A DNA stretch of 22,248 nt from a virus (IMGVR_UViG_2778261418_000019:1-22248); one strand, 5' to 3'. Shown: positions 2,819 to 7,049, counted from the stretch's first letter. Notes: generated by a model not told the origin, from the sequence alone. Program-made: numbers and translations.

Positions 2819-2908
2819 GCAGTCGCCGTAATCAAAAACACTGTCATTATCTGGCATCAATAATGCCATTGATTCTGATAAAGTAGATAATCCCGAATGG
2901 ATGAATTT

Positions 2909-3289
2909 ATGAAAAAGATTGTACTGTCTGCATTACTGTTAGTAGCCCCTTCGGTACTGGCAGTAAATGTAATACTCCCTGATGATGGTCTGTATCGTTG
3001 CGGTGTTGAATCGTGGGAACAGGTAGGAAAGCGAGTAGTAAAGACTGGTTATTATGGTATGACTGGTTATGTGAGTATTGATAACCGTGCTGTTAGTGTG
3101 AAGTTTAGGGATGTGAATATTTCATTCAGCCCTGTTTCAAAACTTAAAAGCGGTCGCCTGATGGCCTATGCCGTAGATACTGACCAGTACGATATTATTA
3201 TTAGTGCAATCAATGGTAAAACACAGTATATGGTCAGCAATGAGAATAATCCCGTATTTTTGAACTTCTCCAATTGTATTATTGAATAA
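2909..3289 (+). CDS. secreted protein, paralog 1 (signal peptide MKKIVLSALLLVAPSVLA; ORF-track start is 2897)
   Basis: Signal peptide nearly identical to that of ORF 3299-3685; conserved LPxxGLYxC after the cleavage site and NC(I/V) near the C-terminus. Confidence 0.6.
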   Translation: MKKIVLSALLLVAPSVLAVNVILPDDGLYRCGVESWEQVGKRVVKTGYYGMTGYVSIDNRAVSVKFRDVNISFSPVSKLKSGRLMAYAVDTDQYDIIISAINGKTQYMVSNENNPVFLNFSNCIIE

Positions 3290-3298
3290 GGAATAGAA

Positions 3299-3685
3299 AT
3301 GAAAAAGGTTATCGTATCTGCATTACTGTTAGTAGCTCCTTCGGTACTGGCTAACACTCACTCTCTACCAGAGCAGGGATTGTATCAATGTGATGTGAAA
3401 GTAGTTGAAATGCTGGGTGATACTCCAGTAGAAAAATCTTCTTATTCTGGTGCAGGTCACGCTAAAGTTAATAGTGATGGTTTTATCCTTAACTTCGGTG
3501 CAATGACTCACGCCACCGGACCAATAGAATCTAATGATTCAATGACAATGGCTTATGATAATGATAGGCAGCGATACTTCCTTGCAACAATGGGTAGTAA
3601 AGAGCAAAACGATATTACTTTTATCTTCTCATTGAGATCTGATACTCGTAATTACTACTTTCAAAACTGCGTTAAAATAAAATAA
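3299..3685 (+). CDS. secreted protein, paralog 2 (signal peptide MKKVIVSALLLVAPSVLA)
   Basis: AAGGAA RBS 6 nt upstream; tandem paralog of 2909-3289; mature domain diverged. Confidence 0.6.
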   Translation: MKKVIVSALLLVAPSVLANTHSLPEQGLYQCDVKVVEMLGDTPVEKSSYSGAGHAKVNSDGFILNFGAMTHATGPIESNDSMTMAYDNDRQRYFLATMGSKEQNDITFIFSLRSDTRNYYFQNCVKIK

Positions 3686-3696
3686 GGGATATATAT

Positions 3697-3906
3697 ATGT
3701 CAGAGAAACTAATTAAAGCAATCCGTAATATTACGGAATATAATATGAGTATTGAGCGTATCATTGTTAGTACCGAAGACCAGCAACACTATTATAGTAT
3801 TAATCCTTATAAGGAAACTGTAATAAAGGTAGCAGACCAATACGGCAAACCAATTGAAGGAGAAGTAGAAATACCACAAATACCGCCATTATTCGATACT
3901 AACTAA
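3697..3906 (+). CDS. hypothetical protein (69 aa)
   Basis: AAGGGA RBS 8 nt upstream; followed by a strong terminator. Confidence 0.5.
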   Translation: MSEKLIKAIRNITEYNMSIERIIVSTEDQQHYYSINPYKETVIKVADQYGKPIEGEVEIPQIPPLFDTN

Positions 3907-3912
3907 TAATAT

Positions 3913-3943
3913 AGCCCACTAATAAAAGTGGGCTTTTTTATTC
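3913..3943 (+). terminator. rho-independent terminator (AGCCCACT-AATAAA-AGTGGGCT + TTTTTTATT)
   Basis: Perfect 8-bp stem, 6-nt loop, then T6. Stem core resembles the hairpin at 303-325. Confidence 0.7.
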
Positions 3944-3984
3944 CTGCCTAAATACTCCTATACATGCAATAGGAGTATCCCACC

Positions 3985-4371
3985 ATGAATACAATCTACC
4001 TACACTTCCCTGATGGAACGTATAAGGCCATAGAAAGCACCACAGGCCGACAGGAATCAGGATACATACCATCACGCAAGGATAAGCTAATAACCGCTCA
4101 TATCATCACACAGGACGGTTACGAGCTATTCATAGATACCTATACACTAACGCTTAAGTATAAATACATTACATTAAACTACTCACGCTTCACCATAGGC
4201 CGTACTAATTACCCTATCAATGCACTAGATACATTCAGCGGTAGTGAGCTACCACACTTAACCCGACTAAGGGAACTACGCGACGAGATCTTACAGTACC
4301 GTACCGTAGATGGTCTGCCTATCTCTTATCGTTGTGATGTAATCGTTAGTAATATGGTGATACTCAAGTAG
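3985..4371 (+). CDS. hypothetical protein (128 aa)
   Basis: ORF track; AGGAG about 11 nt upstream; no recognisable motif. Confidence 0.5.
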   Translation: MNTIYLHFPDGTYKAIESTTGRQESGYIPSRKDKLITAHIITQDGYELFIDTYTLTLKYKYITLNYSRFTIGRTNYPINALDTFSGSELPHLTRLRELRDEILQYRTVDGLPISYRCDVIVSNMVILK

Positions 4372-4684
4372 ATTGCATAAGAAGTGCATAACGGCATGGG
4401 TGGCATGATTCTGCACTGATAGGTGATACCTATCAACATTATGTACAATTTGTGCGATCTTATCGAAAAAAGATGAAATTAATTAAAATAAAGGTTGACA
4501 AATAAAAATATAATAGGTTCTCCCAAAAAACGGCAAATAGAGCGAGTTTTCGCCGCGAATTGCAAATAAAATTCGTGGAAAATTTTACAAAGAACAAACA
4601 AAACTATAGATAAAATCTATCAGTACAGAAATAGATAGGAAATATCAATCAATGGAAAAGAATAAAAAGTGAATAGGAAATCAC
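4372..4684. other. 313-bp AT-rich non-coding region upstream of the small terminase gene; candidate packaging (cos/pac) and late regulatory region
   Basis: No ORF of meaningful length. Contains an isolated GC-rich core CGCCGCG (4551-4557), an 8-bp hairpin TGATAGGT-GAT-ACCTATCA (4417-4435), a palindrome ATAGAT-AAA-ATCTAT (4606-4620) and a further ATAGATA (4631-4637). Confidence 0.3.
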
Positions 4685-5254
4685 ATGGCAAAAGTAAAAG
4701 ATGATGGAACAAGATATTCCTGGCAAGAAATTGCCGACCGATTCGGTGTGGAACATTCCACAGTATCCCGTATCTGGTCTGGTAAAGGACTGGATATTAC
4801 ATGGCCTAAGAAATTAGTAGACGACTGGTTACTTGCAAACGTAATCGAACCCCTACGCAATGGTGATACTAAAGGTCAAATACAAAAAGCAAACCTACGC
4901 AAACTAGAAGCAGAAGCAGACCTAAAAGAATTAGAACTACGTCAACAATCTGGTGAACTAATTCCGGTAGCAGTAGTACAGCAAACATTATCACAATATT
5001 TCTATCAACTAAGACAGGTACTAAGAAGTATTCCAGCGTCGAGTTATGTAGAACTATTTGAATCACAGGACGCCTTAGAATTAAAAATTAAATTACAGGA
5101 CAAGATAGACCGCCAGCTAGAAGAAATCGGCGGGTATGAATATGAGGGAACATATGAAGACCAACTACCAGAAGATGATGAAGATCCTAACGAGGGCGGC
5201 GAAGTCGATCCTACCTCCGAAGAAACAACTACCCGCAGAGTGGGTAGAGAGTAA
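4685..5254 (+). CDS. terminase small subunit (Nu1-like: N-terminal HTH, coiled-coil middle, acidic tail)
   Basis: AGGAAA RBS; N-terminus WQEIADRFGVEHSTVSRIWSGKG resembles the lambda Nu1 helix-turn-helix; sits immediately upstream of the large terminase. Confidence 0.65.
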   Translation: MAKVKDDGTRYSWQEIADRFGVEHSTVSRIWSGKGLDITWPKKLVDDWLLANVIEPLRNGDTKGQIQKANLRKLEAEADLKELELRQQSGELIPVAVVQQTLSQYFYQLRQVLRSIPASSYVELFESQDALELKIKLQDKIDRQLEEIGGYEYEGTYEDQLPEDDEDPNEGGEVDPTSEETTTRRVGRE

Positions 5255-7049
5255 CCTAGTCTTCCCCGATGGCGAACTACAAGGGCAACGCGTCAAATTA
5301 TTTGCCTTTCAACATAAGCCCATCAACGATATAGTTAATCCACGTGTACGTAAAGTGGTACTAATGAGTAGTGCTCAACTTCTCAAAACAACGGTACTAC
5401 AGAATAGTATGTACTACTTCCTAGCCAATGATCCGAGTAACATGATCTTCGGTGGTGCTACTGGCGGTACTACAAGTAAATTCCGTACTGGTAAATGGCA
5501 GGCAGTCATAGAAGCATGTCCGGTGCTGAAAAATCTAGTTAGTAATAAGAATGATAAGAACTATACGAACAATGACAAGACACAACAAAATTTAGATGGT
5601 ACGTTTACCTACTTCCTGTCATTGGGTAGTAGTGCTTCCCTTCGTGGCCTTAGTTCGCCTCGCGTATTCCTAGACGAGATATCAAACGTAGACGCAGACG
5701 GGGATGAAGGCAACCCATTGAAGCTAGCCGAGCAGAGGACGAAAGCATTCTCTAACCCCCTTATTATGTGTTGTTCTACACCACTAGATGAACACGACCT
5801 GATTACTCAACAGTACGAGCAAAGTAATAAACAGAAGTTTTATGTACCGTGTCCACACTGTAACCACTCTCACGAAATGGTATTCGAGAATGTTAAATTT
5901 GAATGGAAGATCATAGAAGGTGGTCGCCGTCGTATCCCCGATGCAGATACTGCAAGATTAGAATGCCCAAAATGTAATAATGTAATCACCGAAGCAGAAC
6001 GTGTACGAATGATTCGTAGGGGTGAATGGGTAGTAACAGCACCAGAAGTAACCGATATAATGGGATATCACATATCTAGACTCTATTCCCCCATCAACTC
6101 CATAAAATCAATAGTAGCAGACTTTGCCGAAGCACATTATACCTTTGACCTTGCATCATTCTATAACAACGTCTTAGGACTACCATATATTGATAAAGAG
6201 AATACCGACCATGATTTGGTACTGTTAGAGAACCTACGCGATAGTGAAATAGATATTAATACCGTGCCAGATGATTGTCAGGGAATCGTATTTGGCGTAG
6301 ACCAACAGTTAGACCGTTTGGAAGTTACTACACTAGGAGTAAGTGAAAAGAATCTATATGTACTAGATCATAGAAGCATTTACGCAATTGACTGTACTAA
6401 GATCGAAGCACCAGCATGGAATAAGCTAACGGCCTTTGCAAATACACCATTTAAAACTAAATCGGGTAAACCATTGAAGGTACTGGCAGGATTCGTAGAT
6501 AGTTCGAACGGCAACGCAACTAGTACCGTATATCGCTATTGCAGTAGTTCTACTATCTTTAAACCAATCAAAGGTGGTACGTCTAACTCTAACCCACTAT
6601 TCAAAGATAGTACCGCTGGTGGTCACTCCCTGATTAACCTTAACGTAAACTTAGGCAAATCAAACGTCCGTCAATTACTCAACCGTGCTGTATCCGATAG
6701 TGAAAATAGTAAGGAAGTACAAATACATTTCAGTCATTCAGTACCGGATGATTACTTTATTCAGCTTACTTCCGAGAAGCGAGTAATAAAGGCTGGTGCC
6801 TGGGTATGGGTGAAGAAAGTTAGTTCGGCGAGAAATGAAACCCTTGATTGTCTTAATTACTCGCTTATATGTTTCCAGTGGTATCTATCCAAGTTAGGTA
6901 GTCAACCATTCCGACAACTAAGGGAATACAACGCTAAACAAAAAGAGAAAGCAGGACTAAATAAAGAAGTAAATACAGAAGAAGCACCAACTAAGCCAAC
7001 TCCAAAACGAGTAATAAGGCCGCGTAAAGGTGGTGGATTCTTTAAATAA
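5136..7049 (+). CDS. terminase large subunit (GpA-like, with Cys-x2-Cys ... Cys-x2-Cys zinc-finger-like motif)
   Basis: 637-aa ORF; N-terminal LPAEWVESNLVFPDGELQG resembles the lambda gpA N-terminus; CPHCNHSH...CPKCNN motif. Exact start uncertain: several in-frame ATGs at 5136-5178, all inside the 3' end of the small terminase gene. Confidence 0.8.
   Translation: MNMREHMKTNYQKMMKILTRAAKSILPPKKQLPAEWVESNLVFPDGELQGQRVKLFAFQHKPINDIVNPRVRKVVLMSSAQLLKTTVLQNSMYYFLANDPSNMIFGGATGGTTSKFRTGKWQAVIEACPVLKNLVSNKNDKNYTNNDKTQQNLDGTFTYFLSLGSSASLRGLSSPRVFLDEISNVDADGDEGNPLKLAEQRTKAFSNPLIMCCSTPLDEHDLITQQYEQSNKQKFYVPCPHCNHSHEMVFENVKFEWKIIEGGRRRIPDADTARLECPKCNNVITEAERVRMIRRGEWVVTAPEVTDIMGYHISRLYSPINSIKSIVADFAEAHYTFDLASFYNNVLGLPYIDKENTDHDLVLLENLRDSEIDINTVPDDCQGIVFGVDQQLDRLEVTTLGVSEKNLYVLDHRSIYAIDCTKIEAPAWNKLTAFANTPFKTKSGKPLKVLAGFVDSSNGNATSTVYRYCSSSTIFKPIKGGTSNSNPLFKDSTAGGHSLINLNVNLGKSNVRQLLNRAVSDSENSKEVQIHFSHSVPDDYFIQLTSEKRVIKAGAWVWVKKVSSARNETLDCLNYSLICFQWYLSKLGSQPFRQLREYNAKQKEKAGLNKEVNTEEAPTKPTPKRVIRPRKGGGFFK

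Follow-up and report, generated by a model that had tools for sequence, protein, structure and literature searches.

The window analysed here is a 22,248-nucleotide stretch of viral DNA (IMGVR_UViG_2778261418_000019:1-22248). The long AT-rich gap in front of its small terminase gene (terS) contains a conserved module, at 4511-4614, that is probably the cohesive-end (cos) site of a group of lambda-like, uncharacterised, low-GC temperate phages of Enterobacteriaceae. In lambda, cos spans ~200 bp, consists of cosQ, cosN and cosB (R3, I1, R2, R1), with I2 between cosN and cosB, and is cut by gpNu1/gpA. The assignment of the module is well supported because two of its motifs (motifs 1 and 2) are shared across the family, a third motif at +49 is specific to the class of the small terminase subunit (TerS), the large subunit (TerL) is of the GpA type, TerS belongs to the same PHROG as Nu1, and the head genes follow the lambda order. 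The parts of the module are listed below; positions with a plus sign count from the A of AGTTT in the core.

4511-4614, + strand: the whole cos-like module, the span of the sequence-model match, roughly 100 bp and gap-free
4515-4523, + strand: motif 1, AGGTTCTCC, a candidate cosQ-like termination signal
4541-4560, + strand: candidate cosN, AGCG followed by AGTTTTCGCCGCGAAT with the predicted nick between them; it includes an 11-bp palindrome, TTCGC-C-GCGAA, at 4549-4559
4544-4557, + strand: motif 2, GAGTTTTCGCCGCG, the conserved core, with the top-strand nick predicted between G and A
4561-4589, + strand: AT-rich, I2-like spacer with poly-A and poly-T runs, which holds the (Y)GTGAR block found throughout the family (CGTGGA at 4574-4579)
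4578-4586, + strand: GAAAATTTT within the spacer, at bp 34-42 here and bp 33-41 in lambda; the 9-mer is unconserved in relatives
4590-4604, + strand: candidate TerS site (R3-like cosB), AAGAACAAACAAAAC, with its core AACAAACAA at 4593-4601 (+49..+57)

Homologues of TerS were confined to Enterobacteriaceae, and the relatives available for comparison are prophages: 12 IMG/VR loci whose TerL proteins are 73-97% identical to that of the window, one locus in Pseudocitrobacter faecalis (DSM 27453), and two among 5,426 complete E. coli genomes. A wider family, at 38-58% TerL identity, was collected by a TerL-profile scan, and ~45 related prophage loci were compared. The hosts of the group are E. coli, Citrobacter, Salmonella, Klebsiella, Raoultella, Pluralibacter and Pseudocitrobacter. 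A collection of 50,697 phage records gave no DNA match to 3900-5400 and no TerS match by tblastn, and TerL is at most 37% identical to any of these records, the best being DCP80, a 141-kb T4-like record that is uninformative; no characterised relative with mapped ends was usable.

A sequence-only covariance model of the ~108-nt module (model R1, built from alignment A5) matched window positions 4511-4614 with 67 bits (E 4e-19). Each relative with a TerL of at least ~43% identity contained one match to R1, in every case upstream of terS and in the terminase (+) orientation; in five sub-lineage loci the match began only at model position 22-33, and in L049 it covered only the right part. Beyond these loci R1 found no match other than a partial one in L045, and none in relatives below ~41% identity. 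The partial match in L045 (13678-13727; 14 bits, E 0.012) is a weak second one, composed of GGGGTTTCGGCACC, AT-rich sequence and T8, and has no motif 1.

The core is the most conserved part of the module. Among 21 distinct relatives, pairwise identity within GAGTTTYCGCCGCGAA (4544-4559) is 0.82-1.0 at 15 of the 16 positions and 0.49 at the Y position. In terS, by comparison, four-fold degenerate sites reach only 0.61, and over 402 nt no run of columns at or above 0.9 is longer than 8. Since the conservation of core and module exceeds that of the terS coding sequence, the module is not chance AT-rich DNA. The core occurs once in the window. Motif 1 is nearly invariant, [AT]AGGT[TA]CTCC, across four TerS classes and lies 27-32 nt before motif 2, with a gap of 21-25 nt between the two; distant relatives (TerL 44-58% identity) keep both motifs. 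In the wider family, with TerL identities down to ~43%, the core reads (C)G, predicted nick, AGTTT(T)CG(C/G)C, with a conserved stretch at +1..+7 (AGTTTYC) and a variable but GC-rich one at +7..+13. Close relatives contain no indels between the core and the second conserved block, AAAACAAACAAAA, except for a 1-nt shift in L053. A first-pass annotation of the window had proposed a candidate cos or packaging site in this gap, with its GC-rich core as the possible nicking site. For the core and the surrounding module, the cos proposal gains support from conservation, uniqueness and a lambda-like geometry of the sub-sites.

The module also behaves as a unit with respect to its neighbours. In L079, L080, L089 and L092 it lies 600-700 nt upstream of terS, yet carries a class-A motif, and a 206-aa reverse-strand open reading frame (ORF) with no Pfam match (L080 1945-2565, - strand) stands between module and terS; the module is therefore autonomous and not a leader of terS. 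Decayed elements carry decayed sites. L054 (OGJN01000019.1), which looks like a decaying prophage, has a terS pseudogene at 2854-3081 whose frame breaks after 27 codons, and contains the sole G-to-T change seen in CGCCGCG. Compared with its near-twin L034, L049 (PPYF01375696.1, ~1170-1230) has lost ~90 nt with motif 1 and the core, the deletion falling between two AGTATATTAAA direct repeats that are present in the near-twin; it is either a natural or an assembly variant. Nine of the 18 exact-core matches in an IMG/VR scan were in unrelated coding sequences, so exact matches without terS are ascribed to chance, and no satellite carrying the core without terS was found in IMG/VR. The core sequence was not found in the literature searched.

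The second line of evidence is covariation between TerS and the right end of the module. Relatives were sorted into four classes by the TerS helix-turn-helix (HTH), with the window 9-mer belonging to class D. In 25 of 26 sequences a class motif of 9-11 nt begins at +48..+50 (counted from the A of AGTTT), despite the diverged spacer that precedes it, and AACAAACAA occupies +49..+57 in all 10 class-D relatives (+48 in one). The HTH sequence FGVEHSTVSRIW pairs with the motif AACAAACAA, YGYDESTVR.W with CCCGNNCCG, YGYDVSVISREW with ACATAACAATAA, and YGYDPSVVSRDW with CCCACGACAGG; in L037, where the HTH is substituted (...ERFGVEISTASRIW), the motif is AACACGCAA. Identity of motif 2 is 0.74 within and 0.69 between classes, and the corresponding values for the R region (+44..+63) are 0.64 and 0.42. 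Lambda, 21 and N15 have cosQ and cosN in common and place TerS specificity in cosB (PMC4669245). The sharing of motifs 1 and 2 by four classes, together with a class-specific motif at +49, matches this pattern.

The terminase genes lie to the right of the gap.

4685-5254, + strand: terS, 189 aa, with an N-terminal helix-turn-helix, a coiled-coil middle and an acidic C-terminus
5136-7049, + strand: terL, GpA-type (ATPase plus endonuclease), 637 aa; the true start is possibly downstream of 5136

TerS gave a full-length match to phrog_57, 'terminase small subunit' (1.6e-20), the PHROG that lambda Nu1 also matches (1.3e-76). In Pfam it has a weak match to HTH_23 and a weak precomputed match to DUF1441. 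Its HTH, which is invariant among close relatives, has RppC (6hlk, E 0.022) as its best solved-structure match. TerL contains GpA_ATPase (PF05876, 2e-50) and GpA_nuclease (PF20454, 2.2e-42) domains, and RefSeq labels the E. coli homologue 'terminase gpA endonuclease subunit'. Downstream of terL are a lambda-family portal gene and then a capsid gene (domain match). The gene after terL is gpW-like (phrog_5774) and a weak gpFII-like (Phage_attach) match follows the capsid gene; the head-gene order is therefore that of lambda. The lambda-like pair of Nu1-type and GpA-type subunits named in the first-pass annotation is supported at the level of remote homology, through the GpA domains of TerL and the PHROG shared by TerS and Nu1. 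In L005 and L008, the acidic C-terminal tail encoded by terS (3508-4110) contains a 12-residue tandem duplication, EGTYEEQLPEDD.

From the lambda system, a sequence of events at the module can be proposed. The N-terminal HTH of TerS would bind the class-specific 9-mer AACAAACAA (4593-4601), for which 4590-4604 is the best candidate site, and its binding would place the GpA-type TerL on the core GAGTTTTCGCCGCG (4544-4557), ~48 bp farther upstream, with the rigid AT-rich spacer in between. TerL would then introduce staggered nicks at the core and generate cohesive ends, the top-strand nick being predicted within a few bp of the 4544-4545 junction, and packaging would proceed rightward through terS and terL. 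At the next cos, AGGTTCTCC (4515-4523), located ~25-30 bp before the core, would serve the arriving translocating motor as a cosQ-like signal. By analogy with lambda we infer cleavage, the positions of the nicks, the length and polarity of the overhang, and the assignment of proteins to motifs. The cohesive ends could differ from those of lambda in length or polarity.

The likeness to lambda cos lies in arrangement. Both sites stand directly upstream of a terS of the Nu1 PHROG and a GpA-type terL, in the same orientation; both have a short conserved motif ~25-30 bp upstream of the core, in the window a candidate for cosQ, and in each the GC-rich core gives way to an AT-rich spacer that contains poly-A and poly-T. 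The cosQ of lambda, 7 bp at ~24-30 bp upstream of the top-strand nick, reads GGGTCCT. Measured against it, the window AGGTTCT (4515-4521, -30..-24) agrees at 5 of 7 positions, in the same register only if the nick is at the 4544-4545 junction, and one relative, L052, has exactly GGGTCCT. The sequence CGGGTCCTTTCC is common to lambda, 21 and N15 at -32..-21 from the nick, where the phage 21 record gives a site for terminal cos cleavage. The lambda I2 is AT-rich, with poly-dA/dT at ~bp 18-50 (PMC4856287). The R3 site of lambda spans bp 50-65 and that of N15 bp 48-60, the cut has been measured at 47 +/- 2 bp from the R site, and the spacing between cosN and cosB is critical (PMC9026076). In the window family, the TerS-class motif lies ~49-57 bp from the predicted nick, as a class-specific TerS site at a fixed distance of ~47 +/- 2 bp from a shared cut should, with the position of the cut itself placed by inference. 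The GpA domains of TerL are those expected of a lambda-like cos system, and the module has the attributes of a packaging site: a single copy, a place beside the terminase genes in their orientation, and conservation among relatives.

There are also differences from lambda. A lambda-type cos in the strict sense has a cohesive-end sequence related to GGGCGGCGACCT and gives virion DNA with 12-nt 5'-protruding ends. The window core does not contain the GGGCGGCGACCT of lambda, neither three R repeats nor an IHF site is evident, terS starts at ~+141 from the predicted nick compared with 191 in lambda, and TerL shares only ~26-30% identity with lambda-group enzymes of the phage collection. AACAAACAA is not repeated in the gap. 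A complex cosB with IHF sites and multiple R repeats was not found, which is compatible with a simple cosB like that of N15. The simple cos of N15 and its relatives relies on one critical R3 (bp 48-60) and lacks an IHF site, with the terS start at bp 89; the window module resembles it in having one conserved candidate TerS site at ~+49 and a terS that starts a short distance away, with no IHF site recognised. Unlike the cosQ and cosN of N15, which are nearly the same as those of lambda, the candidate ones of the window family are different, and no equivalent of the accessory rR2 site proposed for N15 (PMC4669245) was identified in the window. A third comparison is with the cos sites of E. coli phage-inducible chromosomal islands (PICIs) such as EcCICFT073, whose Rpp proteins redirect TerS. 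Here too cosQ and cosN are shared, cosB differs and specificity is conferred by an HTH protein, and RppC is the best structure match of the TerS HTH. The PICIs, however, have cosQ and cosN identical to those of lambda and no terminase, whereas the window site is in a complete prophage with its own terminase. Taken together, the analogy points to a module that probably works like lambda cos without being a lambda-type cos in the strict sense.

Several results weigh against this assignment or against parts of it. The spacer also differs between classes (identity 0.60 within, 0.47 between), so that the contrast in the R region is only moderately sharper; because the classes are clades and the spacer diverges too, part of the class contrast reflects phylogeny. 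Sequence homology to lambda cos was rejected: local alignment of 4480-4700 with lambda cos scored 19 compared with 18.4 +/- 2.4 for shuffles, 126 of 300 shuffles scored at least that high, and a shared GCGRGTTTTCGC is at chance level. Model R1 matched none of lambda, N15 and 21. TerS is below the Pfam Phage_Nu1 threshold (distant family members reach 17-21 bits, with a cut-off of 30), hhalign of TerS with a single Nu1 sequence gave a probability of 5% though the aligned architecture was co-linear, and the AlphaFold2 model of TerS (pLDDT 62) was too poor for fold comparison, with nothing significant from Foldseek. Family-wide, a core dyad centred on +9/+10 is weak (3.3 of 8 matches, background 2.1 +/- 0.5) and does not locate the nicks, and the CGCCGCG palindrome is lost in distant classes. 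Motif 1 is not recognisable in L007, L009, L054, L123 and L124, which have ATGATTCTT instead; terS and terL look intact in most of these. As a stand-in for virion ends, contig ends were checked in IMG/VR, in metagenomes (by a scan with a TerS profile), in GTDB genomes and, for three TerS variants, in Logan assemblies; none was at the core. Assemblies of the runs SRR3957099, SRR5330895 and SRR29225529 contain a TerS identical to that of the window. The contig of L055 starts ~50 nt to the right of the core position; it was not counted, as the sequence at its start is presumably a random-amplification primer.

Other functions for the module were weighed against the same data. It could be a transcription signal of the late (terminase-head) operon, either a terminator or attenuator hairpin, CCGCGAATT/AATTCGTGG, with a T-run and antitermination, or a late promoter or activator site, a reading we consider improbable. 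The window hairpin has a folding energy of -12.2 kcal/mol (z = -3.9), most close relatives have the hairpin followed by 5-8 T, and 81% of cells pair in a 21-sequence alignment; since no sigma-70-like promoter was found on the + strand of the gap, some unconventional signal must exist somewhere. However, the hairpin shows 0 compensatory pairs and shuffles pair equally well, RNAalifold returned no consensus structure, and the gap has no Rfam match for a structured RNA leader. The hairpin is weak or absent in L034, L037, L047 and L050, in which the core is unchanged, and in other TerS classes the place of the 3' arm is taken by the conserved (Y)GTGAR block, which lacks complementarity to the core. 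In the window and its closest relatives the T-run is only 4 long, and a terminator scan calls none here. As for a promoter, the starts of motifs 1 and 2 are ~30 nt apart, +/- 2, which does not suit -35/-10 geometry. The module is separated from terS by 600-700 nt and a reverse-strand gene in the four relatives described above, and a transcription signal is not expected to track the TerS HTH. Narrower candidates were also discarded: a sigma-70 promoter at TTGACA (4494-4499), whose spacing to TATAAT is 9 nt and which is unconserved in relatives, and a helix between CTCC of motif 1 and GGAG of motif 2, which is without covariation because relatives with TAG in motif 2 keep CTCC (alignment judged by eye).

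A terminase recognition site without cohesive ends, used for pac-like headful initiation or for generating short direct terminal repeats, is a second rival, which we regard as quite improbable. TerS-class covariation, uniqueness and position bear on terminase recognition and not on the type of end, and no DNA ends were observed at the module. Nevertheless, such a site would be unexpected because of the type of the terminase and head genes: a GpA-type TerL with its own nuclease domain, a TerS in the Nu1 PHROG, and portal, gpW-like and FII-like genes in lambda order. Terminases of the GpA-type group are known, from their phylogeny, to use cos sites for packaging. A rigid, lambda-like spacing between the R-like site and a GC-rich core, and a conserved motif in the position of cosQ, are likewise features of cos rather than pac. 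The proposal that the gap is ordinary AT-rich intergenic DNA, with a GC patch and palindromes that are functionless products of chance, is scarcely credible overall. AT-rich DNA often contains short palindromes (4.4% of shuffles reach an 8-bp arm), and the other GC-rich patch, at 4392-4404, is unconserved. Against this, core and module surpass the terS coding sequence in conservation and occur once per element in ~45 loci, down to 43% TerL identity. Chance is refuted for the module at 4511-4614; it is a possible account of the palindromes in the first-pass annotation, which are considered next.

The gap itself (4372-4684) measures 313 bp, has a GC content of 31% compared with 38.7% window-wide, and is non-coding; a scan found no credible ORF, no tRNA and no Rfam match. 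It is flanked on the left by ORF 3985-4371 (128 aa, no family matches) and on the right by the terS-like ORF 4685-5254. The GC-rich core described in the first-pass annotation as lone is present as the 24-mer GAGCGAGTTTTCGCCGCGAATTGC at 4540-4563 (58% GC), one position to the left of the reported 4541-4564. It is not alone, as a second GC-rich patch, CGGCATGGGTGGC (4392-4404, 75% GC), lies in the gap and is unconserved among relatives. Both palindromes were found at the coordinates reported.

4417-4435, + strand: palindrome TGATAGGT-GAT-ACCTATCA of the first-pass annotation, outside the conserved module, ~80 nt upstream of motif 1
4606-4620, + strand: palindrome ATAGAT-AAA-ATCTAT, with a second ATAGATA at 4631-4637; lineage-specific repeats just beyond the conserved module

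A perfect inverted repeat with 8-bp arms is reached in 4.4% of dinucleotide shuffles of the gap, and 8% of shuffles show at least three inverted repeats whose arms are 6 bp or longer. ATAGAT/ATCTAT occurs in 3 copies where 0.29 are expected, a number matched in 0 of 500 shuffles; by these counts the ATAGAT repeats exceed chance within the window sequence. The palindrome at 4417-4435 is retained only where relatives share the upstream ORF 3985-4371, and it shows one compensatory change, GGT/ACC to GAT/ATC, in L005 and L008. The ATAGAT elements are absent from close relatives with an identical TerS HTH, or swapped at the same place for an unrelated palindrome, GAAAGGT-TTT-ACCTTTC. Matches to the IHF consensus in the gap all have 1 mismatch, and window-wide 54 were found compared with 40 +/- 6 by chance. 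The palindromes and ATAGATA elements, put forward as terminase or IHF sites, are therefore probably neither TerS nor IHF sites; the repeats are real and may be functional in this lineage, but they are not the conserved terminase sites. The two palindromes form the cores of a 25-nt inverted repeat (arms 4409-4433 and 4606-4630, 80% complementary) that brackets the module. Its arms vary jointly, the window having TTCTGYACTGATAG where L001 and L031 have TTCGGTACTRATAG, and are missing from most relatives. An interpretation as a miniature inverted-repeat transposable element was rejected: no target duplication accompanies the repeat, and relatives without the arms keep the core conserved.

Other features were observed in the surroundings. 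A strong bidirectional terminator-like hairpin at 3913-3934, AGCCCACT-loop-AGTGGGCT, with T-runs on both strands, lies just past ORF 3697-3906; it gave weak matches to the terminator parts of the Rfam Trp and Thr leader models, and the relative L001 has two near-copies (1558-1599 and 2084-2120). Some relatives have an HNH endonuclease gene (PF01844) ~2 kb upstream of terS (L123 456-1181, L125 350-1075); the window ORF in the same position (1518-2240, 240 aa) is unrelated by BLASTP and has no family match. In L010 and L052, a tandem array of the hexamer CCCTTA, ~9 copies, is located ~130 nt upstream of the module. The prophage of E. coli 02B21CPO003B, NZ_CM151386 (L045, 9238-11564 and whole locus) interrupts yegD, is bounded by a 532-aa serine recombinase, has ~39% GC, and has no replication or repressor genes annotated.

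We put at about even the chances of a broader proposal, that it represents an undescribed cos family (core GAGTTTYCGCC with the nick after the first G, and AGGTWCTCC upstream) of widespread ~30-kb low-GC prophages, in which at least four TerS/cosB pairs have been exchanged against a constant TerL cut site. Packaging specificity would then be a swappable cassette made up of the TerS HTH and the 9-mer at +49, and replacing AACAAACAA with CCCGCACCG is predicted to make packaging dependent on a class-A TerS. The lambda model would be extended, not changed, the module being an ordinary kind of element in an uncharacterised phage group. If confirmed, the cos site would be the packaging signal of an enterobacterial prophage group without a cultured relative and would fix the start of the virion chromosome. 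It would also supply a ~100-bp tag by which such elements, or satellites using their terminase, could be found, and a natural four-way series for the study of site recognition by a Nu1-type helix-turn-helix at a measured distance from the cut.

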